From the NCBI GenBank assembly GCA_037128175.1, contig JBAXWY010000014.1:1-57425 (forward strand): a stretch of DNA of 57,425 nt, written 5' to 3'. Position numbers and translations under genes: made by a program. Origin of the DNA: Methanothrix sp. GTDB lineage: Archaea > Halobacteriota > Methanosarcinia > Methanotrichales > Methanotrichaceae. Positions 764-57,425 of the stretch are shown here, one piece after another. The stretch's first letter is position 1; the number at the start of each line of letters is the position of its first letter. Under the pieces are notes generated by a model, which had not been told where the DNA came from, did no database searches, and saw only the letters and a list, made by a program, of their open reading frames with translations.

Positions 764-940
764 CGACCAAGTGTTCGTCGGCAGTCAACTACCCCACCCT
801 AAAGGATGGGGCTTGTGACTGCGCAAAAAATCGCGTCACAATAGGCTGGCTGACAACAGCCCTAAAAGCTATGTTCATAGCTGCGATGTAGTCCGCAGCA
901 CCAGCGAAGCCGCAAGACTCACATCTAAATTCGTCTCTGG
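764..940 (-). ncRNA. Predicted TnpB omega/reRNA (scaffold overlapping the tnpB 3' end plus a flank-derived guide)
   Basis: Follows from established TnpB architecture; the guide would be TGCCGACGAACACTTGGTCG (reverse complement of 764-783); the 5' boundary is a guess. Confidence 0.5.
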
Positions 941-1995
941 TAGGTCTATTCTCCTTCGAGATATGTCTGCATGAAGGGCAAGTCCTAGAAGTGTTTTGGG
1001 GATCTACAAAGACCACAGGGACGCCGGCAATCTTGGCTTTGTAGTCCACAAACATTCTAAGCAACCCAAAATTCCAAGTATGCAAGTTGCGACGCTGTGC
1101 CTTCCTAACCGTAACTCTGTCTCTAATGCCCTGGAGATCTTCAAGAGCAATAGACCTGAGAGTGCCTTTGGCTTTCGTAACAAGCTTCTTGGAAACGCAA
1201 TGGTTAACGTCTTTGGAGAATCGCGCCATCCTACCAGAGAGCTTCTTAAGATGGCGTTTAGCGGATTTAGTGCCTTTGGATTGGAGTCTGGATTTGAGGG
1301 AATCAAGTTGCTCTCTGGTATTGGTGGTCTGCTCACCAGAATGGACTTCTCCATCGCTATCTACCGCCAGGTTCTTGATACCAAGATCTACACCAAGAAC
1401 CCCCTTAGCATCATAAGGAGACTCTTCGGAGGCTTCGACCACAATGCACAGGTAAAAGATCTTTTTAACAAGGATCAAGTCTGCCTGTCCTCTGATCCGA
1501 TCCATTCTAGCACTCTGATAGTCTCCAAACTTGGTAGGGACAATTTGTCTGCCGTGCAGAGTTGCCATAGATACTTTATCAAGCCCCTTCCAAGAAAGAA
1601 CTCTCTGATCGTAGACCAAAGCACCATCGAGCCTAAACTCTGGTTTAATGGATTTATCTCGCTTGTAGGCTTCGCAGACCTTACGAATAGCAAGAATGGT
1701 GAGTTGTGCAGAGAGTCCGAATTTCTCCCGGATAGGATAATACACCGTCTTTTGGACTTCTATCTTGTTGGCACTATGGATAGCAAAGACAGTTTCAGCT
1801 ATCTCATTACAAGCTTCGTTAAACCTCTTCATTGTTTCAGATAGTATCTTGTATTGCTCTTGGGAGGGATCAAGCTTAACCAACAAGGTCTGAAGCATAG
1901 TATTGTGCATATCACTCAATAGTTAATATACTTATCGCACGGGACCGCCCAATTCCTCTCCACCCTGAAGAGATGGGGACTCCTTGGGCAACGAG
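784..1995 (-). mobile_element. IS200/IS605-family element, tnpB-only (IS1341-like)
   Basis: Left-end hairpin at about 1955-1980; right-end hairpin ccccatcctttagggtgggg ending GTTGAC at 784; no target duplication; TTCAA lies immediately 5' of the left end. Confidence 0.92.
789..1919 (-). CDS. tnpB: RNA-guided endonuclease TnpB
   Basis: RuvC-I GVDLG, RuvC-II ALEDL, Zn finger CPSC..CESC, RuvC-III ADYIAAMNI; the stop codon lies inside the right end; the true start may be a downstream ATG (MHNT or MLQT). Confidence 0.95.
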   Translation of the reverse strand: MSDMHNTMLQTLLVKLDPSQEQYKILSETMKRFNEACNEIAETVFAIHSANKIEVQKTVYYPIREKFGLSAQLTILAIRKVCEAYKRDKSIKPEFRLDGALVYDQRVLSWKGLDKVSMATLHGRQIVPTKFGDYQSARMDRIRGQADLILVKKIFYLCIVVEASEESPYDAKGVLGVDLGIKNLAVDSDGEVHSGEQTTNTREQLDSLKSRLQSKGTKSAKRHLKKLSGRMARFSKDVNHCVSKKLVTKAKGTLRSIALEDLQGIRDRVTVRKAQRRNLHTWNFGLLRMFVDYKAKIAGVPVVFVDPQNTSRTCPSCRHISKENRPTRDEFRCESCGFAGAADYIAAMNIAFRAVVSQPIVTRFFAQSQAPSFRVG

Positions 1996-16311: not shown

Positions 16312-16365
16312 TCAAGTGCAGATCTCTCAGGCATGTAGAAATAGGTTTTCAAAAACTCTTAGAGC

Positions 16366-16449
16366 CTGATAATTATAACCAGGGGTTAGGGAATTGAACC
16401 GCAGAGTCGCAGAGCGCACAGAGGACGAACGCACGGAGCTATTTTGCAG
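16366..16449 (+). repeat. Solo copy of the core of the 32.5-36.3 kb repeat unit
   Basis: ctgataattataacc, a spacer, then ccgcagagtcgcagagcgcacagaggacgaacgcacggag; matches the minus strand of the array units. Confidence 0.8.
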
Positions 16450-16522
16450 GGATTTTGGATAGCAGGCCGGATACCAGCCGATCAAATAGTATTAATATCC
16501 CGATCTCTTCAAGGAGTAGCCC

Positions 16523-24329: not shown

Positions 24330-27179
24330 TTGCTGGAAAATTATTCTGCTAAGGAGATCGAGGCCAAGTGGCAGAAGACTTGGGAGGACAAAGCGGTCTT
24401 TCAGCCCGAGCCCGACTCCAGAACGAAGTTCTTTTTAACCATCCCTTATCCTTATCTCAATGGAAATTTGCATGCCGGGCATACGCGCACCTTCACCATT
24501 GGCGACGCCGTGGCGCGTTTCAAGCGCATGCAGGGCAAGAACGTTCTCTTTCCCATGGCCTTTCATGCCACGGGAACGCCCATAGTCGGTCTGTCCGAGC
24601 TCATTGCCAAACGCGATCCATTGATCTGGGACGTTTACACCAAGCTGCACGGCATTCCTGAAGAGGAGCTCTCCTCATTAAACACGCCGGAGAAGATTGT
24701 GCTCTACTTCCGTCGCCAGGCGAAGGCGGCCATGCAGTCCATCGGCTACTCCATCGACTGGAGGCGGGAGTTTACCACCACCGATCCGGCTTACAGCAAG
24801 TTCATCGAGTGGCAGTACGGCATTTTGCGCCGCCTGGATTATGTGGTCAAGGGCAGCCATCCCGTGCGCTGGTGCCCGCATGATCGAAACCCGGTGGAGG
24901 ATCACGACATTCTCAAGGGCGAGGATGCCACCATCATGGACTTTTCCCTGATCAAGTTCCGAATGGGAGACAAAATCCTGCCCTGCGCCACACTGCGCCC
25001 GGAGACTGTTTTCGGAGTGGTCAACCTCTGGCTCAACCCGGATGTCAATTACGTTCTGGCCAAAGTGAACGAGGAGACCTGGGTGGTATCCAAAGAGGCC
25101 TACGAAAAGCTGACCTTCACAGACCGGACCGTAGCTTTGACCGGGGAGATCTCGGGAAAGGATTTGATCGGCAAGAGGGTCACCAATCCGCTGACGGGCA
25201 CCGAGGTTCTCGTGCTGCCCGCAGCATTCGTGGAACCGGACAACGGTTCAGGAATCGTCATGTCCGTTCCAGCTCATGCGCCTTACGATTATCTGGCGCT
25301 CAAGGATCTGTACGGCAAAGACCTGAGCAATTACGGCATCACTGAGGATCTGCGGGACATCAAATTCATTTCCCTGATTGAGTCGCCCGGATATGGAGAG
25401 CTGCCCGCGGTTGAAGCCGTGAACGAGCTAAAAGTCCGAGATCAGAACGACCCCAAGGCAGAGGATGCCACTAAAATGGTCTACCGGCGCGAGTTTCATA
25501 ACGGCGTTCTCAAGGCCAACACGGGCAAGTACGCCGGAATCGCCGTCTCCAAAATCAAGGACGTTCTCCTGGCCGATCTGATGGAGCAGGGCATGGCCGA
25601 GATCTTCTACGAGTTTTCCGAGATGCCGGTCATCTGCCGCTGCGGCACGCGCTGCGTCATCATGATGGTGCGAGACCAGTGGTTCCTGGAGTACTCCGAT
25701 GTGGAGTGGAAGGCCAATGTGCTGCGCTGCCTGGCAGGCATGAAGATCATACCCGAGGAGTTTCGGGTGGAGTTCATAAACAAGGTGGACTGGCTCAAGG
25801 ACAAGGCCTGCGCTCGCAGGAAGGGACTGGGCACTCATCTTCCCTGGGACAAGGAGTGGCTCATCGAGTCGCTGGGTGACAGCACGATTTACATGGCCTA
25901 CTACATTCTGGCCAAGTATGTGAACGCGGGAATGAAGATTGATCAGCTCCCACCGGAGTTCTTCGAGTACGTCTTCATGAACAACGGCGACGCTGCCGCC
26001 GTTGCGGCCCTCACCGGTGTACTCCAGGAGACCGTGCAGAAGATCCACGACGACTTCGGTTACTGGTATCCGGTAGATCTGCGCACCTCTGGGAAGGATC
26101 TGGTCGCCAACCACCTGCTCTTCTTCCTCTACCATCACGTGGCCATCTTCCCGGAGAGGCTCTGGCCTCAGGCCATTGCCGTCAACGGCTTCGTCTCCCT
26201 GGAGGGCAAGAAGATGTCCAAGTCCAAGGGGCCGATTCTCACTTTGCGCCAGGCCGTCGCTGAAAACGGGGCCGACGTAACGCGCCTCTACATCCTGGGC
26301 AATGCGGAAGGTACGGCGGACGTGGACTGGAGAAATGATGCAGTAGAGGCCACCTATGCCCATATGGAGAGGTTCTACAATTTAGCACGGGAGATTTTGG
26401 CCGATAGCAGCATCGACGAATCCGCGGATAAAACGCTCATCGACCGCTGGATGCTCTCCCGGCTGCAAAGGCGCATTGCTGAAGCCACAGAGGCTTTGGA
26501 AAACATCCAGACCCGAAGGGCGCTGCAGAACGCCTTCTACCTGCTCTTCAATGATTTGCGCTGGTACCAGAGGCGCGGGGGCAAGAGCCAGCTGCGCGCT
26601 GTGCTGTCTGCCTGGGTGCGCATGATGTCGCCCTTCACGCCCCACGTCTGCGAGGAGCTGTGGTCCTCTGGTTTAGGCGAGGGCTACGCATCGCTGGCCC
26701 AGTGGCCGGTGGCGGATGAATCCCTGATCGATGTCAAAGCGGAAATGGCCGTGGATCTGGTGGAACGCACTTTGAAAGATATGCAAGAGATCATTATTGT
26801 GATTAAAGCCAGACCTAAAAAAATCACACTTTACATAGCTCCTGCCTGGAAAAGAGATATGCTTCGCCTTGCCGTTACGACAGCAAAAAATGGGAAGCCA
26901 GATATGTCTGCTCTCATGATGGCGGCCAAAGATTCACAACTCATAGCGCCACACATGAAGGAAGCTCAAAAGTATGCGCAAATACTGGTCAAGTCAGCAC
27001 ATTCGCTGAATGCTGAAGCGTTGGAGCTAGACGAGTTTCAGATATTAAGTCAAGAAAGTGAAAGGGATTACATGAGAATTTACATAGGCTGCAATGTAGA
27101 AGTCCATTCAGCAGATGAACCAGAGGGAGATCCCAAAGGTAAAGCGTTGCCAGGGAAGCCAGCGATTTATATCGAGTAG
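24330..27179 (+). CDS. leuS: Leucine--tRNA ligase (archaeal type)
   Basis: PYLNGNLHAGH, ATLRPET, GKDL..NHL, KMSKS, C-terminal PAIYIE. Confidence 0.97.
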   Translation: MLENYSAKEIEAKWQKTWEDKAVFQPEPDSRTKFFLTIPYPYLNGNLHAGHTRTFTIGDAVARFKRMQGKNVLFPMAFHATGTPIVGLSELIAKRDPLIWDVYTKLHGIPEEELSSLNTPEKIVLYFRRQAKAAMQSIGYSIDWRREFTTTDPAYSKFIEWQYGILRRLDYVVKGSHPVRWCPHDRNPVEDHDILKGEDATIMDFSLIKFRMGDKILPCATLRPETVFGVVNLWLNPDVNYVLAKVNEETWVVSKEAYEKLTFTDRTVALTGEISGKDLIGKRVTNPLTGTEVLVLPAAFVEPDNGSGIVMSVPAHAPYDYLALKDLYGKDLSNYGITEDLRDIKFISLIESPGYGELPAVEAVNELKVRDQNDPKAEDATKMVYRREFHNGVLKANTGKYAGIAVSKIKDVLLADLMEQGMAEIFYEFSEMPVICRCGTRCVIMMVRDQWFLEYSDVEWKANVLRCLAGMKIIPEEFRVEFINKVDWLKDKACARRKGLGTHLPWDKEWLIESLGDSTIYMAYYILAKYVNAGMKIDQLPPEFFEYVFMNNGDAAAVAALTGVLQETVQKIHDDFGYWYPVDLRTSGKDLVANHLLFFLYHHVAIFPERLWPQAIAVNGFVSLEGKKMSKSKGPILTLRQAVAENGADVTRLYILGNAEGTADVDWRNDAVEATYAHMERFYNLAREILADSSIDESADKTLIDRWMLSRLQRRIAEATEALENIQTRRALQNAFYLLFNDLRWYQRRGGKSQLRAVLSAWVRMMSPFTPHVCEELWSSGLGEGYASLAQWPVADESLIDVKAEMAVDLVERTLKDMQEIIIVIKARPKKITLYIAPAWKRDMLRLAVTTAKNGKPDMSALMMAAKDSQLIAPHMKEAQKYAQILVKSAHSLNAEALELDEFQILSQESERDYMRIYIGCNVEVHSADEPEGDPKGKALPGKPAIYIE

Positions 27180-27238
27180 GGAATGAAAAATTCCTACTCG
27201 ATTCTTCGTATTTAAAGCAATTCGAAAGGAGGTCTTAA

Positions 27239-29023
27239 TTGAAGAAGACACTCGTTAAAAGTGTTGGATATACACTTGGCCATTTATTAAGCAATATCGA
27301 TTTAGGCGTAATAGGTTTGCCCGATCTTCAGCGACCCTTCGTATGGCCTGATAAGAAGGCACGTGATTTATTTGATTCTATGTATCGGGGCTATCCCATT
27401 GGATATCTACTTTTCTGGGAAAACATAATTACTGATCAAATGCCCCCTACTCAGATTCGTAACGTCGGCACAAACGCAAAGCAGAATGTTCCAAGTCTTC
27501 TTATTGTTGACGGGCAGCAAAGGCTTACTGCACTTTATGCTGTAGTAAAGGATATCTCTATAATACGAAACCGAAGAAAAGAAAAAATAAAGATTGCATT
27601 TCAGCCAGTAAAGCAAAAATTTGATGTAGCTAATACGATTATTGAAAATGATCCTGAATGGATTCCAGATATCAGCAAACTTTGGTCCGTGGATACTGGT
27701 CTGATTAGATTCGCAAATAATTTTATAAATACTTTGCGTAAAAAGCGTGAAGTATCAATTGGAGAAGAGGACCTTATTACAGAAGCAATTGGCGATCTTC
27801 ACGGAATCTTGAACTATCCGTTTACAGTTCTTCAATTGTCGTCCACCATGAGTGAAGATCAAGTGGCTGAGGTTTTTGTTAGAGTAAATAGCAAAGGAAC
27901 TCCTTTGAACCAAGCAGATTTCATTCTTACTCTAATGTCTGTTTTTTGGGATGATGGCCGTGCACAATTGGAAAGATTTTGTGAGTCTGCCTGCAATCCG
28001 TCAACAGATAAGCCAACTCCCTACAATCATTTCATTCAACCAGCACCAGATCAGCTCCTCCGTGTAAGTGTAGCTCTTGCTTTCAGAAGAGCACGTCTTG
28101 AGCATGTTTACTCGATCTTGAGAGGCAAAGACCTACAGACCGGGAATTTCTTGGATGAAAAGCGAGATCAGCAGTTTGCAGTACTGAAGGATGCTCAAAC
28201 CTATGTCCTAAACTTAAATTATTGGGATGATTTTTTCAAGGCCATAGAAAGAGCAGGATTCAGACGTCATGAACATATATCATCTCAGAATGCTTTGCTT
28301 TATACTTATGCATTTTATCTTATCGGGAAGCGCGACTTCAATGTAGACGATTTTAATTTACGTAACTTGATTGCGCGATGGTTCTTCATGGTTTCTATCA
28401 CGGGGCGTTATACAAGTTCTCCAGAGAGCCGCATGGAACAGGACCTCGCGAACTTGCGTGACATCCATGATGCCTCATCATTTGCGGAGCATCTGAATGC
28501 CACAATGGAACAGAATTTTACGGAAGACTATTGGAAAATAGTGTTGCCTAATAATCTAGCAACATCGTCAGCTCGTAGCCCAGAACTTTTTGCATATTAC
28601 GCAGCCCTTAATCTGCTCGATGCGAAGGTTTTGTTTTCGGAACTCAAGGTTGCTCAACTAATGGACCCAACTAAACGTTCGATGAGATCGGCCACTGAGC
28701 GTCATCATCTTTTTCCCAAGAAATTTTTGGAAAGCTCTGGATTGATGGAAAAACGCAAAATTAATCAGATTGCCAACTATGCTTTGCTGGAATGGAGAGA
28801 TAATGATGGAATATCTGATAAAAGCCCTCGTGAATATCTCCCATTAATGCTTGATCGCATGCACCATTCTGAAGATGAGCTTAAAAAAATATATTTCTGG
28901 CATGCTCTTCCAGAAGGATGGGAAGAAAAGAATTACACGGATTTTTTAGAAGAGCGACGCAAGCTGATGGCAAGTGTAATTCGAACTGGATTTGAAACCC
29001 TTAACAAAGTGATATCACGTTAA
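27239..29023 (+). CDS. DUF262 + C-terminal HNH (DUF1524-like) protein, GmrSD/type IV restriction-like
   Basis: LPDLQRPFVW, VDGQQRLT, FVRVNSKG; ERHHLFP...NQIANYALL...N; AT-rich; SD ggaggt before the TTG start. Confidence 0.88.
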   Translation: MKKTLVKSVGYTLGHLLSNIDLGVIGLPDLQRPFVWPDKKARDLFDSMYRGYPIGYLLFWENIITDQMPPTQIRNVGTNAKQNVPSLLIVDGQQRLTALYAVVKDISIIRNRRKEKIKIAFQPVKQKFDVANTIIENDPEWIPDISKLWSVDTGLIRFANNFINTLRKKREVSIGEEDLITEAIGDLHGILNYPFTVLQLSSTMSEDQVAEVFVRVNSKGTPLNQADFILTLMSVFWDDGRAQLERFCESACNPSTDKPTPYNHFIQPAPDQLLRVSVALAFRRARLEHVYSILRGKDLQTGNFLDEKRDQQFAVLKDAQTYVLNLNYWDDFFKAIERAGFRRHEHISSQNALLYTYAFYLIGKRDFNVDDFNLRNLIARWFFMVSITGRYTSSPESRMEQDLANLRDIHDASSFAEHLNATMEQNFTEDYWKIVLPNNLATSSARSPELFAYYAALNLLDAKVLFSELKVAQLMDPTKRSMRSATERHHLFPKKFLESSGLMEKRKINQIANYALLEWRDNDGISDKSPREYLPLMLDRMHHSEDELKKIYFWHALPEGWEEKNYTDFLEERRKLMASVIRTGFETLNKVISR

Positions 29024-29062
29024 TTTGATCTAAGCTGAAAGATCCAATTGGAAATGGAGATG

Positions 29063-29431
29063 CCCACCAAGATCACCCTCTACACCTCGCCAGCCTGGAA
29101 GAAGGAGATGCTGCGCCTCGCAGTCGAGGCGGCAACGGGGGGCAAGCTGGACATGGGGGCGCTCATGAAGCAGGCCATGGCCAGCCCGGCGATAGCGGAG
29201 CACAAGAAGGATGCGCCCAAGTATGCGCAAAAGCTGGCCAAGGCGGCCCACTCGCTCTCGGCGGAGGCGCTGGGGCTGGACGAGTTCGAGACGCTCTGCA
29301 GAGAGAAGACGTACCTGGCTTTGGCCATGGGCGTGCCGGTGGAGATCTACTCGGCAGATGAGGCGGGGGAGGACCCCAAGGGCAAAAGCCGCCAGGCGGA
29401 GCCGGGGAGACCGGCGATTTATATCGAGTGA
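29063..29431 (+). pseudogene. leuS: Displaced second copy of the leuS 3' end (~122 codons, still open)
   Basis: PTKITLYTSPAWKKEMLRLAV...DPKGKSRQAEPGRPAIYIE* aligns with leuS 26814-27179. Confidence 0.92.
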
Positions 29432-29485
29432 AAGGATGGCTGAAGACCGTTGGCTCCGGGTGCTGAGCCTGGGGCTAACGGAATT

Positions 29486-29530
29486 AAACCACAGAGGCGC
29501 AGAGCGCACAGAGAACGAACACGGAGACGG
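29486..29530 (+). repeat. CACAGAG-type short-repeat block, inverted relative to the downstream array
   Basis: aaccacagaggcgcagagcgcacagagaacgaacacggagacg; compare 16397-16438 and the reverse complement of 33580-33624. Confidence 0.8.
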
Positions 29531-29543
29531 CGGTTCGATTGGG

Positions 29544-29637
29544 CTGGAAAAGATGCTGCACGACGGATGAGCCGGGTGGCGGACCCAAAGGGCGAGAGCC
29601 GCCAGGCGGGGCCGGGGGGTTGGCGATACATATTGAA
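29544..29637 (+). pseudogene. Third, internally deleted and frameshifted leuS 3'-end remnant
   Basis: ctggaaaagatgctgc resembles 29095-29114; gatgag...gacccaaagggcgagagccgccaggcggggccgggg...gcgatacatattgaa resembles 29357-29428. Confidence 0.8.
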
Positions 29638-29818
29638 ATTAAAATATGATGGGACCAGATTAATTACCGGAACCGCAAAATAGATTAACAGAAAATTTGA
29701 GGGGTATAATTCTTTAGCAATAAATCTAATTTTCTATAATAACATTATTATTTGTATATCTCTTTAGATTTCGCATTTCTTTTATGCTTAAATTTTGGTA
29801 AATAATCGGATCCTTAAC

Positions 29819-32425
29819 TCAATTAAGAATTTTATATATATTTATTCTGCAGATAGCATATAAGATATTGTGCACTATAATATTTCTTATTTCGCTATCA
29901 TTATCATCAAGTATGCTGAGGGCTTGACTTAGATACTGTATTGCTAGTTTATAATTGCCTTCAAAAATGCAAAGATCAGCTATATTGTTCAATTGCTTGG
30001 CTTCACCAACTCTATATCCAATCACTCTTTCAATTCTTAATGCATCCTTAAATGATTCTAATGCATGGTCCATCTTGTACTTTTTTTTATAAATAAGTCC
30101 AATATGGCCCAGCTGAATAGCCACCTTCTTCTTAACTCCTATTTTCTCAAATATATGCAGTCCTTTGTTGAGATAGTCGAGTGCTTTATCCAAATCGTCT
30201 TTTTCATAATAAACTAAACCGATACTGCATAGACATTGAGCTTCTCCTTCTTTGAACATAATTTTTTTAAATATATCTAAAGACTTAGTATGATATTTTA
30301 AGGCACTGTTGAAATCTCCTTTCTTTATGCAAAATTCTGCGAGGCTAGTTAGGGAAAATGCTTCATTTTGCTTATACTTTATATTTCTAGAAATTTTTAA
30401 GCTACTTATTATGCAACTTAATGCGTCACTCAACTTTCCTTTATCTATGAGAGCGTTACCGATGTTAATTAATTGTTCAGCTTCACCTTGCTTGAAATCA
30501 ATCATTTTGAAGATATCTTTTGCTTCATTGTGGTATTCGAGAGCCTTATCCAATTTGCCCTTGTCTCTGCAAATAAGAGCAATATTTGCCAAAGCTGAAG
30601 CCTCTCCTTGCTTGTAGCCTATCTCCTTAAAGATTCTTAGCGCATTTTTTCGGTATTCAAGAGATTGATTCAATTCGCCCTTATCTGCATAAATATTTCC
30701 TATATTTAAAAGATGTGTTGCTTCAGACTGTTTATTATTGATTTCTCTATCAATTTCGAGTGCTTTCTCTAGTAAATCAATAGCACCTTTTTGATCCCCT
30801 TTAATATAACAAATGCGTGCAAGGCTCCCCAAGACACTTGATTCCCCTTCTTTGTTATTGCCTTTTCTGAATATCTCTAGGGCATCTTTTTGGTAAAGAT
30901 ATGCATTCTCCGTTTCTCCTTTTTCGAGGAATATAATGCCTAAGTTGCTAAAAACTGCAGCTTTCATCAATCCGTTTCCCGAAGGATCAAAAATTTCTAA
31001 TCCTTTATTAAAACATTTAATGGCTTGGTCGACTTCTCCTTTACTTCTATAAATATTACCTATATTTAGCAATGCTGCTATTTGCATATCTATATCCTTA
31101 AACTTTTTATAGATTTCCAAGGCTTTAACAGAACATTCTCTGGATTTATCTAAATCACCTTTAATAAAATAAACAATTCCGATATTATTCAAAGCTGCAG
31201 CTGTAGATAAAATGGCTTCATCATTATAAATTGCTTGAATATTTGGCCTTCCAGAAATAACCAATAATTCTTTATAATAATTTTCTGCCTTTGATAACTC
31301 TCCCAAGCTTTGATAGCAATTTCCTGCAATTCCTAAGAAAATCATTTTATCTTTGGGACTCATAAATAAAGATGAGCAAGTATCTATTTCTTTAATTGTT
31401 TCGATATATCTCTCATCTTTTGCCAATTTGAGTATATTGCTTAAACGATTTGAAACTTCGGGATCATCCGAGAAAGGGACACCGTCTACATACCATTGAA
31501 GTCTGGTCTCCCGGCTTGCTTCGATCGTTCGGCTCTTTGCAATTTGAACTAGATTGATAATATATTCGTGAAGATCATCTGGTACTTGTTCTAAACCAGA
31601 ATCATAGTATTCATCATTTATTTTAATATTTGGAAAAAGGTTTATGCCATTATCAAAGAGTATCTCACAAACAGTTGATAATTGTGATTTTATTGAGCTA
31701 ATTATTTTTTCGTGCATTATTTCGACTAATTCATTTCCAAAGTACGTCCTGGGAAATCTGAACCATACTTTAATCTTATTATCTTTTATAGAAATACTTT
31801 CGACATAGTAATGTCCCCACCAATGATATTTGCTCTCTATCGGAATTTCTCTTAATTTAAGAATATCGATATTAACACGCTGTTTATCTGCATCCAGTTC
31901 ATCACCAAGTTGAAGGAGTGCTGCCAAAAGAGCCATCCTTAATTTTCCGCCGGATTTTTCAGCTAATTCATTAATATCTAAGCCTCGGTGATATTTGGAA
32001 ATGATTGCAATATAATGCGCATAATCTTTACAAATCTCCAATCCTAATGAAAATTGAGAATTCTGAGAAATTGATTCATTGATCATTCTTGCGCTTGCCA
32101 AGTTATGGGATTTCCTAATGATTTCCTTTTCTTCTGCATTATAGTCTTGTTTTTTTGGTAAATTGGCATGTTCTGGAGATTGCATACCTACATCATGCAA
32201 ATATGCAGAAGCTAACAGAACAAATCGCTCTTCTTCGGTTAATAAATTATTTTTATTACCTATTATCAATCCTAGTACATCAATAATTCTCTCAGAATGA
32301 TCTAAACCGTGACGAGTATAATGTTGAAGCAATTGGGGGTCCCAGAGTTTGCCTACGGCCAACCTTATGCTCGATAGGCAAGCCTTAAATGATTCATTTT
32401 GGATCACGAGACATTCCTGTATCAT
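29819..32425 (-). CDS. HD-domain (HD-CE-like) protein with a long C-terminal TPR array
   Basis: YTRHGLDHSERI, AYLHDVGM, HNLAS, KYHRG, LQLGDELD; more than 10 TPR-like repeats at about 40-aa spacing (L.NIG.IY..KG.LD.AL....AL.IF); AT-rich; start moved to ATG 32425. Confidence 0.88.
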   Translation of the reverse strand: MIQECLVIQNESFKACLSSIRLAVGKLWDPQLLQHYTRHGLDHSERIIDVLGLIIGNKNNLLTEEERFVLLASAYLHDVGMQSPEHANLPKKQDYNAEEKEIIRKSHNLASARMINESISQNSQFSLGLEICKDYAHYIAIISKYHRGLDINELAEKSGGKLRMALLAALLQLGDELDADKQRVNIDILKLREIPIESKYHWWGHYYVESISIKDNKIKVWFRFPRTYFGNELVEIMHEKIISSIKSQLSTVCEILFDNGINLFPNIKINDEYYDSGLEQVPDDLHEYIINLVQIAKSRTIEASRETRLQWYVDGVPFSDDPEVSNRLSNILKLAKDERYIETIKEIDTCSSLFMSPKDKMIFLGIAGNCYQSLGELSKAENYYKELLVISGRPNIQAIYNDEAILSTAAALNNIGIVYFIKGDLDKSRECSVKALEIYKKFKDIDMQIAALLNIGNIYRSKGEVDQAIKCFNKGLEIFDPSGNGLMKAAVFSNLGIIFLEKGETENAYLYQKDALEIFRKGNNKEGESSVLGSLARICYIKGDQKGAIDLLEKALEIDREINNKQSEATHLLNIGNIYADKGELNQSLEYRKNALRIFKEIGYKQGEASALANIALICRDKGKLDKALEYHNEAKDIFKMIDFKQGEAEQLINIGNALIDKGKLSDALSCIISSLKISRNIKYKQNEAFSLTSLAEFCIKKGDFNSALKYHTKSLDIFKKIMFKEGEAQCLCSIGLVYYEKDDLDKALDYLNKGLHIFEKIGVKKKVAIQLGHIGLIYKKKYKMDHALESFKDALRIERVIGYRVGEAKQLNNIADLCIFEGNYKLAIQYLSQALSILDDNDSEIRNIIVHNILYAICRINIYKILN

Positions 32426-34253
32426 ATTTATCCTGCAAGCAGAAACATGTGAGGTTGTATTTAGATTATAGTAGGGGAACAAAATTGCATATTTATTACC
32501 GACTAAAAAACTATCTGAATTCGCCAGCCAATACGACCCGCCCTTCCGCCATCGCCGCAACCCCGGACGGCCCGGCCCACAGGCAGTGGCCAATGAGCGC
32601 AGCCGAGCGCGAGCAGCAATCACAGACCTGCGGCTGCCCGGCGCTGTTTCCGGTAGCCTGCAAGAATTGCAAAGCAGTAGAACGCATCGAATCTTTGCGC
32701 GTCCTTTGTGCCTTTGTGCCTTTGTGGTTTGGTCCGTAGTTGCTGGAAATAATTATCAGCTAATAGTAATAGCGAGCCGATGGCATTGCTTTCTAAATTC
32801 TGCGCCCCGGAAAACTGCCCTTGCCGGAGGCTGGCTCTCCTGGCTCTCAGGCCCGACCGGCCTCCCGATCCCGAGCGCTTGCCCGGCTACCGAGTCCGCC
32901 TGGCGGACGACGGCTGTGGCCCTGGATGGCCTTTGCCGAAAAACGGCTCCACTGACGCGGCCCGAGGGCTCTGGCAAAAAATGTCCTCTTTTCATCGGAA
33001 CTTCGCGCCTTCGCGTGAATCCGTGATCTCGGCCGGATCGGCCCCCTGCCCCTGCGTCCCCGCCAGGCAATCCAGCCCGCCCTGACGACAGCGCCGCCCA
33101 GACTGGGCCCATGTGAGGCGGCCACGAGCGCAACCGGGACCAGAGCGGCGCAAAGCACGGCCTTGCGGCTGCCCGGCGCTGCTGCCGGTAGCTCGCAAGG
33201 ATCGCCAAGCAGGAGGACCGCATCGGATCTCTCTGCTAAAAAGTCTCTGTGCGTCCTCTGTGCGCTCTGTGTCTCTGTGGTGGGATCGTCAGTTGTATGG
33301 TTATAATTATCAGCTAATAGTAATAGCGAGCCGAAGGCATTGCTTTCTTAATTCTGCGCCCCGGAAGACTGCCCTTGCCAGAAGCATGCACACCTGGCTC
33401 TCAGGCCCGACCGGCCCTCCTGCCCTCTTGCACGAGCGCTCGTCAGGCAAGCCAGCCCGCCCTGACAACATCGCTGCAAGCCCGGACGGCCCGGCTCACA
33501 GGCGGCCACGAGCAGCAGCCGGGACCCGAGCGCCGACAGCAACCACATTCAAAAAAGTGCACTGCTTCTGAGCAATAGTCGTCTCCGTTCGTTCGTCCTC
33601 CGCGTGCTCTGCGTCTCTGCGGTTATATTCGTAATTGTTCTGTTATAATTATCGTCTAATAGTAACCGCGAATCACCACAGATTCCAAAACCCAGCAACC
33701 TGAAAATTGCATCTGCCGGAGTCCAGCACCACTTGGCTCTCAGGCCCGACTGGCCTCCTGCCCGCCCTGACGACATCGCCGCCCAGGCTGGGCCCACAGG
33801 CGGTGGCTCACGAGTGCAGCCGGTACCCGAGCGGTGCAGAGCGCGGCCCCGCGGCTGCCCGGCGCTGCTTGCGGTAGCCAGCAAGGATCGCAAAGATGGA
33901 GACTGCATCAGACCTCTCTGCTAAAAAGTCTCTGTGCGTCCTCTGTGCGTCCTCTGTGCGTCCTCTGTGCGCTCTGTGTCTCTGTGGTGGGATCGTTAGT
34001 TGCATGGTTATAATTGTCAGCTAATAGCAAACTGACGGCATCGTTTCCCAAAATCCTGCGCCCCGGAGAACTGCTCTTGCCGGAGGCAGGCTGTCCTGGC
34101 CCTCAGGCCCGACCGGCCTCCTGCTCGCCCTGACAACATCGTCGCCCATGCTGGGCCCACGAGCGGCGAGCCACGAGGAGCAGCAGTCAAGTGATTTCTA
34201 GACAGGAAAGTTTATGGGATGAGACGACAGCTAAAATTAATGATGGCCTGGCT

Positions 34254-34535
34254 ATGAGTAACGAAAAAATCACCTATCGTCTTCACGCTGTCCAGCGGAT
34301 GTTCGAGCGGAAAGTCAGCGCAGAAGAAGTTCGATATGTGCTGGAGATCGGAGAGGTGATTGAAGAATATCCAGATGACACACCCTACCCAAGTTGCCTG
34401 ATCCTGGGAAGTTATAAGGGGCGCCTGATTCATGTAGTAGCAGCCAACAATTGCCTCGACGAGGAGATAATCGTAATCACAGTCTACGAGCCCGATCCCT
34501 CGGAATGGGACCTGGAATGCAGGAAGAGGATTTAA
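34254..34535 (+). CDS. DUF4258-family protein (putative RelE-like toxin)
   Basis: HAVQRMFER, GEVIEEYPDD.PYPS.LILG, HVV, ITVYEPDP..W. Confidence 0.88.
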   Translation: MSNEKITYRLHAVQRMFERKVSAEEVRYVLEIGEVIEEYPDDTPYPSCLILGSYKGRLIHVVAANNCLDEEIIVITVYEPDPSEWDLECRKRI

Positions 34536-34762
34536 TGAAATGCGTTATCTGTAAAAAGGCATCCACTAAGCCCGGAACAACGACAATTACCTTTGAGCGA
34601 GATTGTTTGACAATGGTAGTAAAATGCGTTCCTGCTCAAGTCTGCCCCAATTGCAAAGAGGCGTATATCAGTGAGGCGGTTACAGCCGAGCTGCTTAAGG
34701 ATGCTGAGGAAAGAGCAAACACAGGAGCACAAGTAGAGATCCGGCAGTACGTTGCAGCCTAG
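34535..34762 (+). CDS. YgiT-type zinc finger protein (MqsA N-terminal-like, putative antitoxin)
   Basis: MKCVICK...VPAQVCPNC.EAY; TAATG overlap with the DUF4258 gene. Confidence 0.88.
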   Translation: MKCVICKKASTKPGTTTITFERDCLTMVVKCVPAQVCPNCKEAYISEAVTAELLKDAEERANTGAQVEIRQYVAA

Positions 34763-35412
34763 GTTTATTTAACTCATTGAATAATTTACTTCATCCTGGC
34801 TGAGCCTGCTCTTGTTCCTCAGGCCCGATCGGCCTCCTGCGCCCCCGAGTGCGAGCGCCTGTCAGGCAAGCCCGCCCGCTCTGACTACCACGCAGCAACC
34901 CCGGACTGCCCAGAGGCAGCGGCCACGAGCAGCAGCCGGGGCCCGAGCGGCCCAGCACGCGGCCATGCGGCTGCCCGGCGCTGACGCCGATAGCACGCAA
35001 GGATCACAAAACGTGAGGACTACATTGGATCTCTCTGCTAAAAAAGTCTCTGTGCGTCCTCCGTGCGCTCTCTGGTCTCTGTGGTGGGATCGTTAGTTGT
35101 ATGGTTATAATTATCAGCTAATAGTAATGGCGAATCGTTATCATTTCCAAAATCCAGCGCCCTGAAAACTGCCCTTACCGAAGGCATGCGCCTCCTGGCT
35201 CTCAGGCCCGACCGGCCCCCTGCCCCCTTGTCCGAGCGCTTGCCAGGATAGCCAGCCCGCCCGGACGACCGCATCACAAGCTCGGATGGCCCACGGGCGG
35301 CTTTCCTCTGGCAAGACCGGGGCCCGCCTAGAAGTGCAACGTTTAATCACCACAGTGGGTACACTTCACCATTGGGTAGTATTATATGCAAATAGGGATT
35401 AAGTGATTTCCA

Positions 35413-35640
35413 ATGAAACGTCTTTATGACTACACGGTAATACTACGTCCCGAAGACAATGGTACATTCGTGGCCTACGTACCTGCAATTCCGGGCTGTC
35501 ATGCCTTGGGCCAAACTTCCGAGGAGGCACAAACCGAGTTGATAAACGTTTTCGAAATGATCGAGGAAGAGTACAGAGAAGAAGGGCGCATGCTTCCATC
35601 AGATGTAGAAGTAAAAGCTACTCATGCCTGCCAAAGCTAA
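35413..35640 (+). CDS. hicB: HicB-family antitoxin
   Basis: Y.VIL.PED.G.FVA.VPA.PGC...G.T.EEA. Confidence 0.92.
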   Translation: MKRLYDYTVILRPEDNGTFVAYVPAIPGCHALGQTSEEAQTELINVFEMIEEEYREEGRMLPSDVEVKATHACQS

Positions 35641-35839
35641 GGACCTGCAGAAAGCGGCCAAGAAGCTCGGGTTCCAGATGGTGAGGCAAAAAGGCAGCCA
35701 CGCCAGATGGAAGCATCCCGATGGCCGAGCGACTACGATTCCAATACATGGCAATAGCGAGATTGGAAGCTGGCTTTTCTACGAAATTCTCAAGCAATTG
35801 GGAATAACTGAAGATGATTTTTGCAGGCTCATAAAATAG
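35624..35839 (+). CDS. hicA: HicA-family mRNA interferase toxin
   Basis: LGF..VRQKGSH...HPDGR.TTIP.H...I.KQ.G. Confidence 0.93.
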   Translation: MPAKAKDLQKAAKKLGFQMVRQKGSHARWKHPDGRATTIPIHGNSEIGSWLFYEILKQLGITEDDFCRLIK

Positions 35840-36484
35840 GACGGTTCACCATCATTTTGGCGGCCTCGGCCTTGACAGTCAACCTACCGAGGGTTCTTGC
35901 CAGGCAAGCCAGCCCGCCCTGACGACATCGCCGCCCAGGCTGGGCCCACAGGCGGCGGCCACAAGCTGCAGCCGGGACCCGAGCGCCGGCAGCAATCACG
36001 GTCGAGCGGCTGCCCGGTGCTGTCGCCGATAGCTCGCAAGGATCACAAAACGTGAGGACTACATTGGATTTCTCTGCTAAAAAAGTCTCTGTGCGTCCTC
36101 CGTGCGCTCTCTGGTCTCTGTGGTGGGATCGTTAGTTGTATGGTTATAATTATCAGCTAATAGTAATGGCGAATCGTTATCATTTCCAAAATCCAGCGCC
36201 CTGAAAACTGCCCTTACCGAAGGCATGCGCCACCTGGATCTCAGGCCCGATCGGCCTCCTGTGCCCCCGAGCGATAGCCTGGCAGTCGGGCCCGCCTGGC
36301 CTTGTCACTCTCCTGTTCCAAGATGAAGAACATAATATGCATTCTGGCAACAATAATTTATGGTCGAATGCGCCTTCTGCCCGATCCCATGCTGCGCGTG
36401 GTCAGCAGGCTGCTCGACCGGCAAAACCGGCTGGAGGAGCAGCTGCAATTGGGACCACTTTGTCCGGCAGCAGAAGGCGAAAGC

Positions 36485-37144
36485 TTAGATATGGCTGCCG
36501 TCACAAAACGGTTTATTCTGCGATCTTCCGCACCTGCAGAGGGTGACGCGGTTTCGGGTCTCGTACAGTTTGCCGTTCGCTGATTCGATGGGTATGCCTC
36601 CTCGCACCCAGAGCGGCCCGTGCTCACCCCTTGGCGGGTATTCGATAACGACAATGGACTTATCCAATTCGGGCTCAATCGTTTTCCCGCTTTCATTATC
36701 CGTTATCACCAGCCGACCCGAGGGGCAGTTGCATGCTTCTTCTATGGCAATCTCCCTATCTCCCTGGTTTTCTGGATGCTTTACCAGATTCCAAATCCCA
36801 CCGGCTCGCATGCAGAACCTGGCATGGACGCAAAGATGCTCATTATCTGCCAATGTCAGCGCAGGACCATGGATTAATTTTGCCGTTTCGTCAAAGGGCA
36901 CATGGTCTCCGGCCTCGGTTCCTTCAAAGGAGATCTTTGCATGAGTCCCATCGCAGAAGGGTTTATTCTTCGAGTGGCCGCACCGACAGAGTGCATACTT
37001 TTCCTGCATGGGGTATCTCTTAACTTCCCGCCAGGTCCGGCAGTAGCCCTCATCATCGTTGCAAATCTCCGAGGTAGTGAGGGGTACAATGCCTGTCACG
37101 ATATATGGACCATTCTTGCTCACAGTTATTTTCATTTCTGTCAT
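36485..37144 (-). CDS. CDGSH iron-sulfur domain protein (two CDGSH motifs around a divergent ferredoxin-like domain)
   Basis: LCRCGHSKNKPFCDGTH, CVHARFC, CPSG, LCRCGRSQNKPFCDGSH. Confidence 0.92.
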   Translation of the reverse strand: MTEMKITVSKNGPYIVTGIVPLTTSEICNDDEGYCRTWREVKRYPMQEKYALCRCGHSKNKPFCDGTHAKISFEGTEAGDHVPFDETAKLIHGPALTLADNEHLCVHARFCMRAGGIWNLVKHPENQGDREIAIEEACNCPSGRLVITDNESGKTIEPELDKSIVVIEYPPRGEHGPLWVRGGIPIESANGKLYETRNRVTLCRCGRSQNKPFCDGSHI

Positions 37145-37193
37145 AATTTATGTTTCCTGTAAATTTCTAATCTTTTTGACTATAGAACCAACT

Positions 37194-37715
37194 TTATGGA
37201 AATATCTCAAATCCCCTGGGGAACTTGAAGCTTCTTTGTCCCAGCGCTCTATCCGTCGCCTCTAAATTACCCTTGTCATTTCCGGCAGTTTTGACTTTGT
37301 TCAATACATTGTCTGAGGACTCCTCCTCTTCCACCTGCTCCTTGATGTACCACTGCAGGAACTCTTTCGTCGCCTCATCCAATTCCTTCTCAGCTACCTT
37401 GACAAGGGTTTGAATGAGTCCTGTCACCACACGCTCGTGATCCCAAACATGCTGGAAGGCATGCAGAGGTGAGGTCCAGGTGAACTGGGGTGCCTCCACC
37501 GTCAGCATCTTAGCTCTGCCGCCTCTTCCTGCCACGTAGTCGAGCATCTTCATGGTATGAACCAGCTCTTCGCCTGCCTGTAGTCTCATCCAATGGGCAA
37601 AGCCCTTCATATTTATAGACTCGAAATGATAGGACATGGAGAGATAGAGATAGGAGGAGTACAGTTCCCTATTCGCCTGAACATTCAATGCTTCATTCAT
37701 CTTTTCGCTTAGCAT
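37194..37715 (-). CDS. ftn: Ferritin (non-heme, prokaryotic)
   Basis: LN.Q.N.ELYSSYLYLSM, QAGEE..H, HE..VT, FLQWYIKEQVEEE. Confidence 0.95.
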   Translation of the reverse strand: MLSEKMNEALNVQANRELYSSYLYLSMSYHFESINMKGFAHWMRLQAGEELVHTMKMLDYVAGRGGRAKMLTVEAPQFTWTSPLHAFQHVWDHERVVTGLIQTLVKVAEKELDEATKEFLQWYIKEQVEEEESSDNVLNKVKTAGNDKGNLEATDRALGQRSFKFPRGFEIFP

Positions 37716-37736
37716 GGCAATACACCCTAATCCATT

Positions 37737-37898
37737 CTACTTTGCCTTCTCAAATTGCTCTTTGCCGACACCGCATTCCGGACAGATCCAATCATCGGGA
37801 AGGTCCTCGAATGCCGTTCCTGGAGCGATGCCGGAGGTGGAATCTCCCTTTTCCGGATCGTAGGTGTATCCACATACCTTACAAACATACTTATCCAT
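37737..37898 (-). CDS. Rubredoxin (53 aa), absent from the ORF track
   Basis: [53 protein letters not shown]; SD aggtga. Confidence 0.95.
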
Positions 37899-37913
37899 TT
37901 TTTAACTCACCTT

Positions 37914-38774
37914 CTAAATGAAATTTTCCAGCAGCGTATTTATTTTGCGGTCTCTTTCCGATAAATTCGGCCTATATTCTGGAAATGACTGATCAAAACG
38001 CTCTGCCTCAATTTGGTAGAACTTGCCCAGGGGAATAGGAACCTCGGAGCGGTCGTAGTTCCAGGAGCGAATGATCTTTTGCGCCTCCTCAAAGCTTGAG
38101 GCATCGTTCCCCTGCACTGTATAGGTCCACTTATTGTAGCTCTCATACATATTGTTGTAAGAGACGCAGACCTGGAGAACATCCACAAATGAGAAGCCCT
38201 TGTGCAATATCGCTTCCTTAAAGAGCTTCTGGAGCTGTTCAACGCCGTGCGTGTAGCCCCGGGCAATGTAAGACGCTCCCGAAACCAGCATCAGCTCGAG
38301 CGGGTTCATGGGATGTTCCCTTGTGCCCGCGGGCGTGGACTTGCCCTTGAAGCCCTGGGGCGATGTGGGCGTGTACTGCCCGGTGGTCAAGCCGTAGACG
38401 CGGTTGTCGTGCAGGATCATTGTAAGATCGATGTTCCTCTTGGCGGCGAAGATGAGATGATCAAGTCCCTCCGCCAGGCTATCCCCATCTCCGGAAAAGC
38501 AGATCACCTTCAAATCAGGATTGGCAATCTTTATGGCCGAAGCCGCAGGCAGCGTTCGGCCGTGAATGGAATAGAAGCTGTTCACATTCATGTAGTCCAC
38601 AATCTTGGCGTGGCAGCCTATGCCGGAGACCAGGACAACGTTTTCTACGGGAAAGCCTTGGCTGTCCAGTTCTGCCAGAACTGATCTCATGGCGCTTAGA
38701 ATGGAGAAGTTGCCGCAGCCGGGGCACCAGGAGTTCTTAGCAGTGGTAGCCAGATCTTTGGGATTCATATTCAT
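37914..38774 (-). CDS. 2-oxoacid:ferredoxin oxidoreductase beta subunit
   Basis: WCPGCG, SGIGC, HGR, GDGD, DN.VYGLT.GQ..PT TPP-binding motifs. Confidence 0.93.
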   Translation of the reverse strand: MNMNPKDLATTAKNSWCPGCGNFSILSAMRSVLAELDSQGFPVENVVLVSGIGCHAKIVDYMNVNSFYSIHGRTLPAASAIKIANPDLKVICFSGDGDSLAEGLDHLIFAAKRNIDLTMILHDNRVYGLTTGQYTPTSPQGFKGKSTPAGTREHPMNPLELMLVSGASYIARGYTHGVEQLQKLFKEAILHKGFSFVDVLQVCVSYNNMYESYNKWTYTVQGNDASSFEEAQKIIRSWNYDRSEVPIPLGKFYQIEAERFDQSFPEYRPNLSERDRKINTLLENFI

Positions 38775-56988: not shown

Positions 56989-57425
56989 ATCAGGAGTGCG
57001 GAGGGTCACGATACAAGATATTCTATGATAAGCGAGTTAAAAAGGATTGCGAGCTAATTATCAACAATATTTGCATGGATCAAGGCTATAAAATTCATGC
57101 AATGGAAATTGTAGACGATCATGTTCACTTGTTCCTGGAATTCCACCCGAGCTCTTCTCTATCAAGAGTCGTTCAATTTTTGAAAGGAGGCAGTTCATAT
57201 AGAATGTTCAAGCTTCATCCCGAATTGAAAAAAAGATATTGGTGCGGAAGCTTTTGGTCAAGTGGCAAGTTCTTTCGATCCGTCGGAAACGTGACTGCTG
57301 ACACAATAAAGCACTATATTAAGGAATCTCAGAGGAAACCAAAAGCATAGTCGCAATTTTGCAGATCAAAGGAATCTGGGCAAAGAAGGCTCGATGATTT
57401 CTGATCTCCAGCTAACCGGGCGTGC
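56989..57425 (+). mobile_element. IS200-type element with an internal 5' deletion (continues past the window end)
   Basis: Follows TTAC; the left-end stub and right-side sequence are shared with 2308-2478. Confidence 0.85.
57009..57350 (+). pseudogene. tnpA: 5'-truncated IS200/IS605 HUH transposase TnpA
   Basis: In-frame RYKIF...DDHVHLF (HUH), LKGGSS, FWSS..F.SVG, YIKESQ; the usual N-terminal H.VW.PKY segment is missing. Confidence 0.85.

Follow-up and report, generated by a model that had tools for sequence, protein, structure and literature searches.

Anatomy of the array

The window analysed here, that is, the whole stretch of 57,425 nt from Methanothrix sp. (contig JBAXWY010000014.1), carries at positions 32520-36300 an array of six same-strand, GC-rich, non-coding repeat units of 320-383 bp each, together with two intact type II toxin-antitoxin (TA) pairs. 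The genome to which it belongs (hereafter G000) is 99.8% complete and comprises 98 contigs. An initial annotation of the window had described six units with a fixed module order, interleaved with TA genes, and this anatomy was borne out. The AT-rich 20-mer TTATAATTATCAGCTAATAG (at most 3 mismatches) occurs six times in the 57-kb window, always on the plus strand and against a chance expectation of 0.01, and its positions (32747, 33301, 33643, 34008, 35105 and 36144) return the spacings originally proposed (554, 342, 365, 1097 and 1039 bp). A 17-bp core, CTCAGGCCCGACCGGCC (at most 2 mismatches), was found in seven copies in the window, all on the plus strand, with 0.00 expected by chance. The units are built of an A part and a B part, and a MAFFT alignment of all six (65-90% identical) reproduced both the fixed module order and the claimed absence of the first two B modules (gcggctgcccgg and gcaaggat) from unit 3 (33400-33738). 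The copies differ by indels that are not multiples of three (one of 35 nt, and others), which break the reading frames, so that the unit is not a decayed gene, as judged by eye. The G+C content is 61% in the units, 48% in the TA genes and 51% in the genome. Pieces of the array were recovered at 100% identity in contigs from two independent public DNA runs, and it is therefore not an assembly artefact of one data set. The features are the following:

32520-32845, plus strand: unit 1, truncated at its 5' end, starting inside the A part without a left core and abutting the start of the HD-CE/TPR gene (nhmmer model 40-381, alignment)
32846-32862, plus strand: core CTCAGGCCCGACCGGCC, 0 mismatches
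32863-33026, plus strand: C-type non-coding filler (..cgcctggcggac..ggatggcctttgccgaaaaacggctccac..cttcgcgccttcgcgtgaa), also seen behind cores in relatives (20 of 63 B-tail junctions)
33027-33399, plus strand: unit 2 (A + B), opening with the degenerate core tctcggccggatcggcc (nhmmer model 3-381)
33400-33416, plus strand: core (17-mer search)
33400-33738, plus strand: unit 3, first two B modules absent (alignment, nhmmer)
33739-33755, plus strand: core, 1 mismatch (17-mer search)
33739-34101, plus strand: unit 4, with additional CTCTGTG copies (alignment, nhmmer)
34102-34118, plus strand: core (17-mer search)
34102-34190, plus strand: A-type leader before TA1, ~97% identical to the sister species from TGAC (~34131) on, not upstream
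34257-34535, plus strand: TA1 putative toxin DUF4258 (Pfam 6.1e-24)
34538-34762, plus strand: TA1 putative antitoxin, MqsA/YokU-like Zn-ribbon (Pfam 2e-4, below cut-off; the pairing recurs in relatives)
34763-34817, plus strand: TA1 module tail, ending cctggct..., with the core directly after
34818-34834, plus strand: core, 1 mismatch (17-mer search)
34818-35200, plus strand: unit 5 (A + B) (alignment, nhmmer)
35201-35217, plus strand: core (17-mer search)
35201-35301, plus strand: A-type leader before TA2 (nhmmer model 2-102)
35413-35640, plus strand: TA2 putative antitoxin HicB-like/UPF0150 (Pfam 5e-6 and 7e-6, just under the cut-offs)
35624-35839, plus strand: TA2 putative toxin HicA (Pfam 5e-21)
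35866-36239, plus strand: unit 6, opening with a degenerate core (nhmmer model 3-382)
36240-36256, plus strand: terminal core, 1 mismatch (17-mer search)
36240-36300, plus strand: terminal stub following the final core; from 36232 on, 98.5% identity to the sister species
32747-32766, 33301-33320, 33643-33662, 34008-34027, 35105-35124 and 36144-36163, plus strand: AT-rich box TTATAAT..CAGCTAATAG, whose columns rank with the best conserved in the unit alignment
35032-35192, plus strand: left member of the pair of perfect 161-bp direct repeats, contained in the 300-bp repeat (91%) that flanks TA2
36071-36231, plus strand: right copy of the 161-bp repeat, only 78-84% identical to units of the syntenic sister-species array
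29819-32506, minus strand: left neighbour, HD-CE + TPR protein of low G+C (Pfam), in a slot that is variable by synteny

As first described, each of the two long intervals holds one TA pair, namely DUF4258 with an MqsA-like Zn-ribbon (TA1) and a HicB-like protein with HicA (TA2). Their assignment to type II TA modules rests on adjacent family matches and on the recurrence of the same pairings in relatives. The partial duplication on either side of the TA cargo is real: TA1 lies between the cores at 34102 and 34818, and TA2 between 300-bp direct repeats (34960-35259 and 35999-36298) of 91% identity, which enclose the 161-bp perfect match. The HD-CE/TPR gene does adjoin the array, as had been stated; the boundary needs correcting, however, as the array begins at 32520 inside a unit, without a core, beside the start of that gene.

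The AT-rich box resembles a TATA element and is a candidate archaeal promoter. On the minus strand of the B part (e.g., window 35040-35124) this box is followed by CACAGAG repeats and then by a run of five to six T (complement of ctaaaaaagt), an arrangement that could, speculatively, represent a short archaeal transcription unit of ~45-70 nt. Contigs from RNA libraries match portions of TA1 and of its tail, reaching as far as the core (212 nt, 4 differences), at a depth of ~3; these libraries may contain DNA, and the contigs are thus not proof of expression.

Core and module grammar

Stacking of all 17-mer copies from G000 and from the fetched arrays of its relatives placed the core CTCAGGCCCGACCGGCC at module junctions. 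What stands upstream of it is a B-tail of ~55 nt (..aatccagcgcccggaaaactgcccttgccggaggc..cctggct), the final part of a C module or, with nothing in between, the close of a gene cassette, so that cargo 3' ends may adjoin the core without any filler (e.g., contig C44 of G000, position 21640). In order to avoid selection on the core itself, the B-tail was used as the anchor. Among 63 distinct B-tails, AGGCCCGACCGGCC follows within a few bases in 52 at no more than 2 mismatches, and in 46 at no more than 1 (14-mer), with the columns beside the core only 40-80% conserved. The sequence found directly behind core+TCCYG falls into several classes, namely C-type (20), long A (14), short A (9) and other (9), the remaining 11 B-tails having no core. 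The grammar of the arrays is core-module-core-module, and three kinds of module fill it. Module B is a non-coding filler of ~250 bp with one hairpin-repeat arm and the conserved AT-rich box, module C is a second non-coding filler of ~190 bp, and the third kind is a self-contained type II TA operon with an A part of variable length in front. The core itself contains a dyad of only 5 bp (AGGCC-N5-GGCCT, i.e., AGGCC-CGACC-GGCCT).

Cargo of the arrays

Cargo was sampled from 29 arrays, comprising that of the window, other loci of G000 and loci of 11 other genomes, with L040 (a duplicate of L129) excluded from all counts. The longest non-overlapping open reading frames (ORFs) of at least 50 aa and below 57% G+C were taken from every gap of at least 150 bp, yielding 119 cargo ORFs; some of these certainly lie on the wrong strand and are artefacts. 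Pfam matches among the 119 were dominated by UPF0150 (11), HicA (10), HicB-like (8), DUF4258 (7) and PIN (7), followed by HepT, UPF0175, DUF3368 and ParE (3 each) and by the rarer nucleotidyltransferase MNT, TumE, YafQ and MqsA-like families (2 each), other TA families appearing one or two times each. The sole families outside TA systems were acylphosphatase (1), MdcG (1, weak) and HVO_A0114 (1). As a control, ORFs no shorter than 110 aa were taken from the 4 kb beyond the ends of 20 arrays; these 78 ORFs gave 81 families, mostly housekeeping, including ilvBNC, an ammonium transporter, DJ-1 and ribosomal L15e, along with PIN, OrfB_IS605 and DDE_Tnp_1 (2 each).

Within G000, 7 of the 32 HicA, PIN or DUF4258 genes lie no more than 1 kb from a unit or core, in zones that make up 1.96% of the genome. 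The repeat is therefore strongly enriched for TA cargo, and TA genes do not depend on the repeat. Two TA clusters of G000 are free of it (C10:44853-47572 with PIN + HicA + HicA, and C4:72428-77853 with three PIN genes), so TA islands exist outside the arrays too.

Variation between species

The array of the window (site 1) is syntenic with 38.6-45.1 kb of contig C3 in the genome of a sister species (G012), the right flank being 95% identical over 3.2 kb. The TA1 and TA2 modules of the two genomes are 96.5% and 92% identical, respectively. Present in G012 only are an unknown module, a UPF0175/DUF3368 pair, a PIN pair and a TnpB insertion at the array end; present in G000 only are three more empty units. 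The insertion in G012 measures 1.4 kb, lies between the equivalents of window positions 36361 and 36368 and contains an OrfB/TnpB gene of the IS605 type that seems to be divided between two frames. Transposase matches are also present in the window itself, TnpB at 870-1070 (minus strand) and Y1 at 57006-57326 (plus strand).

Two further sites show the same behaviour. At site 2, beside ilvC, a terminal VapBC module is common to G000 (end of C11 + C44), G012 and another Methanothrix species (G006), and the inner modules differ. Site 3 shows a single B fragment in G012 and two partial units, one unit more (271 bp), in G000; in L069, a contig of a Methanothrix metagenome-assembled genome (MAG), the array extends over 6 kb and includes five cargo gaps. 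Three blocks of L069 match the ilvC-side arrays of G000 and G012 at 93-96.5%, and L069 shares 769 bp at 96.5% identity with the array at locus L130, i.e., the same modules stand in arrays at different loci. Concerning the order of shared modules, G012 reads TA1, ..., UPF0175/DUF3368, TA2, PIN163, whereas G017, a further Methanothrix species, reads TA1, PIN163, UPF0175/DUF3368. The polarity of each module relative to the repeat is constant, being the same for TA1 (3/3), VapBC (2/2) and RelBE (2/2), and opposite for PIN163 (2/2), UPF0175/DUF3368 (3/3) and the TumE pair (2/2).

Cassette content that varies between relatives, a criterion applied to integrons and to clusters of attC sites without an integrase (CALINs), was thus observed at three orthologous sites. 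The initial annotation had tied the repeat to variable cargo and had named a fixed cargo order, units unlinked to variable cargo and a decayed gene as observations that would speak against its view. The order of cargo varies (G012 vs G017), the units are linked to variable cargo, as seen from the almost TA-only gaps vs the housekeeping flanks and from the whole-module differences between species, and the unit is no decayed gene.

Breakpoints and recombination traces

High-identity blocks shared between arrays start mostly 0-55 nt after the upstream core and end 16-60 nt after the downstream core, with exact ends that vary at the nucleotide level. Specifically, the TA1 block begins at the TGAC of GCCCGCCCTGAC and ends ~40 nt past the next core; other blocks end inside the C module at a shared 'gccgagaaa' or at a stop codon, or are broken by indels of 33-43 nt. 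Units 5 and 6 share the 161-bp perfect tract, yet across the units of the syntenic G012 array its identity is only 78-84%, and in unit 6 the identity to G012 rises to 98.5% nine bases before the core. Such a pattern reads as the signature of a gene conversion, or of the replacement of a module, that took place recently in this array.

Distribution and the hairpin repeat

In G000, the nhmmer model built from the six units gave 140 matches, of which 46 were long (on 14 contigs) and 94 covered the CTCTGTG block only (on 37 contigs), and solitary copies and fragments of the unit are present at other sites of the genome. The unit is present in 17 of 24 other Methanothrix species and in none of 16 genomes of other genera of the class. 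Additionally, a 171-nt junction probe matched 29 of 58 other Methanothrix genomes. Among the 80 matches listed from a species-representative collection, 8 were from Methanothrix/Methanotrichaceae, and the only 3 loci with more than one core match were all among those 8, the matches outside this group being single ones in GC-rich bacteria. No exact match to core+TCC was found in a viral contig collection. The unit family is restricted to the genus Methanothrix, with arrays at several chromosomal sites.

A distinct palindromic element of ~200 bp (CTCTGTG x4 ... GGTTATAACC ... CACAGAG x4), frequent at contig ends, includes the CTCTGTG block, and the B part of the unit carries a single arm of this element, up to GGTTATAA. 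Examples of the palindromic element in G000 are C1:5100-5330, C2:1-220 and C18:20420-20640, and in the window 16313-16453 and 29482-29525 (minus strand); it accounts for much of the 94 block-only matches. A 125-bp stretch of G000 (C41:8347-8471), 90-98% identical in nearly every matching Methanothrix genome, is probably a tRNA or other RNA gene.

Comparison with known systems

The array had been called integrase-free, and this holds, since no integrase stands beside any array as judged by the positions of PF00589 matches, by TIGR02249 and by the 78 flank ORFs. The best TIGR02249 score for IntI in G000 was 40.7 bits against a cut-off of 265, PF00589 matches fall on C5, C6, C7, C28 and C29 with none beside an array, a search of G000 for resolvases gave none, and no recombinase recurs among the flank ORFs. 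G000 has two full tyrosine recombinases, both far from any array, an XerA-like gene (C7, 302 aa), Y1 transposases, 17 TnpB matches and three Cas1 copies, none of the latter beside an array. As partners of the repeat, two candidates were rejected on co-occurrence: the non-universal tyrosine recombinase (C5) is equally common whether the junction element is present (12 of 29 genomes) or absent (12 of 29), and Y1 transposases were counted in 25 of 29 and 21 of 29 genomes, respectively.

CRISPR arrays have short repeats (~24-48 bp), regular spacing and unique spacers, whereas the units here are 320-383 bp long, are spaced at 342-1097 bp and have genes between them. The attC sites of integrons are imperfect palindromes of 57-141 bp that fold as single strands and carry R''/R' boxes (RYYYAAC...GTTRRRY). 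Eight junction elements, folded as DNA on both strands, were no more stable than shuffled sequences (z from -1.70 to +1.22), and no RYYYAAC/GTTRRRY boxes were seen at module ends. The early description of the layout as neither CRISPR nor attC-like thus stands. Like integrons and CALINs, the Methanothrix arrays consist of small, mostly single-operon modules parted by a recurring element, with variable content, a prominent share of TA modules and often no adjacent integrase. They differ in having no IntI, a recurring element of 100-380 bp that is non-palindromic, unfolded and free of the RYYYAAC/GTTRRRY boxes, several arrays per genome, common non-coding fillers and imprecise junctions. TA modules are given as 10.5% of the annotated archaeal cassette proteins in the integrons of archaeal MAGs in the main text of Ghaly et al. 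(2022, PMC9668308), which does not mention Methanothrix. TA cassettes are also described, in work cited there, as stabilising the Vibrio superintegron, where addiction is proposed to guard against large deletions (Szekeres 2007; Iqbal 2015; cited in PMC9668308). That superintegron is an attC/IntI system, unlike the Methanothrix arrays, and the link is by analogy only.

Modules bounded by dif sites, which flank them in alternating orientation, are similar in having no recombinase of their own. In Acinetobacter, plasmid dif (pdif) modules are described as being shuffled between replicons, many of them with TA pairs, and are thought to use the housekeeping recombinase of the host (PMC6449649, PMC13141974). 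In dif sites, for which a length of 28 bp is given, a 6-bp spacer separates two inverted arms of 11 bp each (PMC2958812). No single position carried an inverted repeat of the form 11-N(4-10)-11 (at least 8/11 matches) in more than 7 of 92 distinct junctions, the shuffled maximum being 3. The Methanothrix core is moreover asymmetric, with all copies direct, and belongs to chromosomal arrays of an archaeal host, all of which sets it apart from dif.

Modular interspersed repeats known from bacteria were also compared. BOX, BIME/REP, RUP and miniature inverted-repeat transposable elements (MITEs) are short, non-coding, high-copy and lineage-specific elements made of sub-modules in variable number. 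The Methanothrix unit resembles them in all these respects, and in having its CTCTGTG sub-block in common with a palindromic high-copy element. Unlike these families, it lacks terminal inverted repeats as well as a conserved RNA fold, and none of them is known to frame genes as cargo or to build cassette-like, TA-only arrays. Against a MITE, only 3 weak inverted pairs were found in 31000-38000, none of them at unit ends. No empty sites were recovered around two loci, where synteny is lost in more distant species. A structured RNA was rejected: the RNAalifold consensus of 22 of the 27 full-length units (five that were short or lacked the first B modules were excluded) reached -1.32 kcal/mol with 10 pairs, and Rfam at gathering thresholds gave no match in the whole window.

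These arrays are cassette arrays with repeated junctions that, by these criteria, fall outside the integrons, the CALINs and the dif modules. Neither this repeat nor TA arrays of Methanothrix/Methanosaeta framed by repeats were found described in the literature covered, which included the main text of PMC9668308 and passages of PMC4158269 and PMC2958812.

Possible mechanisms

The integron-like mechanism originally proposed found no support, given the absence of a fold above shuffles, of a dif-like inverted repeat and of any recombinase that tracks the repeat across genomes, together with the imprecise breakpoints. The repeat may still act as a recombination handle, and general homologous recombination between repeats would explain the data at least as well. 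The explanation that we favour, and to which we give about an even chance, is that the repeat forms a scaffold that gains, loses and shuffles modules by repeat-mediated general recombination, TA modules being retained as addictive. Direct repeats would recombine with one another, so that whole modules would be gained, lost, duplicated or reordered through unequal crossing-over, gene conversion or the loop-out of circles that re-enter at any other repeat. The general recombination machinery of the host would do the work, with most crossovers at the sequences that are best conserved, namely the core and GCCCGCCCTGAC. TA modules would accumulate in such arrays because they have their own promoters and are addictive; cells deleting them would be counter-selected, and other cargo would be lost. 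TA enrichment would then reflect survivorship, by analogy with what has been proposed for the TA cassettes of the Vibrio superintegron. We favour general recombination because no additional enzyme has to be assumed and because the imprecise breakpoints, the conversion tract, the copy changes of empty units and the fixed polarity all agree with it. Several points weigh against it. The core is much better conserved than its surroundings and the sequence classes split right after core+TCCYG, which plain homologous recombination leaves unexplained and which, from the junction sequences, would be expected of a protein-recognised junction. Most units are only 65-85% identical and thus poor substrates for homologous recombination, a process that moreover cannot carry the repeat to fresh places on the chromosome. 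Excised circles and deletions at the population level were not seen, the read joints found having sides of only 23-38 nt and probably stemming from other copies. Finally, 25 of the 32 tested TA genes of G000 have no unit nearby. The conservation of the core, the class switch behind it and the seeding of new sites, being unexplained by general recombination, keep both a core-reading enzyme and a self-targeting transposon in contention.

A site-specific cassette system, in which an enzyme of its own or the host XerA used off-label would read the asymmetric 17-bp core, excise circles and insert them at other cores, is possible although rather unlikely, and would make the arrays an archaeal functional analogue of integrons or dif modules. 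Such a system would account for the position of the core at module junctions, directly after 52 of 63 B-tails, for the divergence of sequence classes right behind it, for cargo 3' ends that meet it directly and for the fixed polarity of modules; the clustering of breakpoints 0-60 nt after cores, the converted B module that stops 9 nt before the core and the 769 bp at 96.5% common to L069 and L130 at different loci point the same way. However, G000 has neither IntI nor a resolvase, no recombinase recurs beside arrays, and both the non-universal tyrosine recombinase (12/29 vs 12/29) and Y1 (25/29 vs 21/29) are distributed with little regard to the repeat. The core has only its 5-bp dyad, with 11-N(4-10)-11 in at most 7 of 92 junctions, its junctions fold no better than shuffles (z -1.7 to +1.2), and the breakpoints are imprecise, some lying at GCCCGCCCTGAC and some inside the C module. 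It is doubtful, on our estimate, that the arrays represent a third gene-cassette platform beside integrons and dif modules, in which an enzyme reading the asymmetric core, itself unlike both attC and dif, would move self-contained TA, and perhaps other defence, modules between chromosomal arrays. Improbable, in our view, is a non-autonomous transposable element that has the core as its 3' end and inserts preferentially right after an existing core, so that tandem arrays would build up, TA operons being captured by read-through or nesting. The unit is indeed high-copy, non-coding and confined to one genus, with solitary copies and fragments elsewhere; module 3' ends (B-tail + core) are conserved and the downstream sequence varies, a separate hairpin repeat, of which there are 94 further copies, contributes one of its arms to B, and G000 has Y1 transposases and 17 TnpB matches. 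Against this, the region has no terminal inverted repeats and no subterminal hairpins, no target-site duplication or empty site was found at two loci (synteny being lost in distant species), and the unit does not correlate with Y1 transposases. We consider it very unlikely that the unit is a regulatory module of TA operons (promoter, operator or insulator) spread by segmental duplication, with the arrays as a passive by-product. The TATA-like AT-rich box, the 5-N5-5 dyad of the core and the location of both window TA pairs downstream of a unit on the same strand would suit such a role, but many modules lie on the strand opposite the unit (PIN163, UPF0175/DUF3368, TumE), runs of units are free of genes (window units 1-4), the same 25 of 32 TA genes do without a nearby unit, and the RNA evidence is too thin for a transcript start.

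Neighbouring genes

The slot between the array and a class I aminoacyl-tRNA synthetase gene (24330-27179, with Pfam matches that include the LeuRS editing domain) holds the HD-CE + TPR gene in G000, and in G012 an OLD/AAA_21-like ORF with a UvrD-like helicase (C3:45.1-51.0 kb), a pair that we take to resemble Gabija. No repeat units were found on the far side of the slot genes in either case. In G000, a GmrSD-type restriction gene of low G+C (27239-29023) is inserted at the 3' end of the synthetase gene. This insert is absent from G012, where the equivalent of window 26863 is joined to that of ~29069 with an overlap of ~43 bp, and the overlap around the insert (26864-29068) suggests an att-like duplication. 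The displaced 3' end of the synthetase gene persists as an ORF at 29048-29431, and its last ~60 bp are repeated at 29575-29640.

Significance

Methanothrix, a globally important methane producer, shows the logic of a cassette array without the defining parts of integrons (IntI/attC) or of Xer-dependent dif modules. If homologous recombination alone is at work, the arrays would be a clean natural case of unstable repeats in which addictive genes are kept selectively; should the 17-bp core be read by an enzyme, they would represent a new recombination system. Either way, the arrays account for many assembly breaks in Methanothrix MAGs and mark hypervariable TA sites in Methanothrix genomes, that of the window adjoining a variable defence slot.

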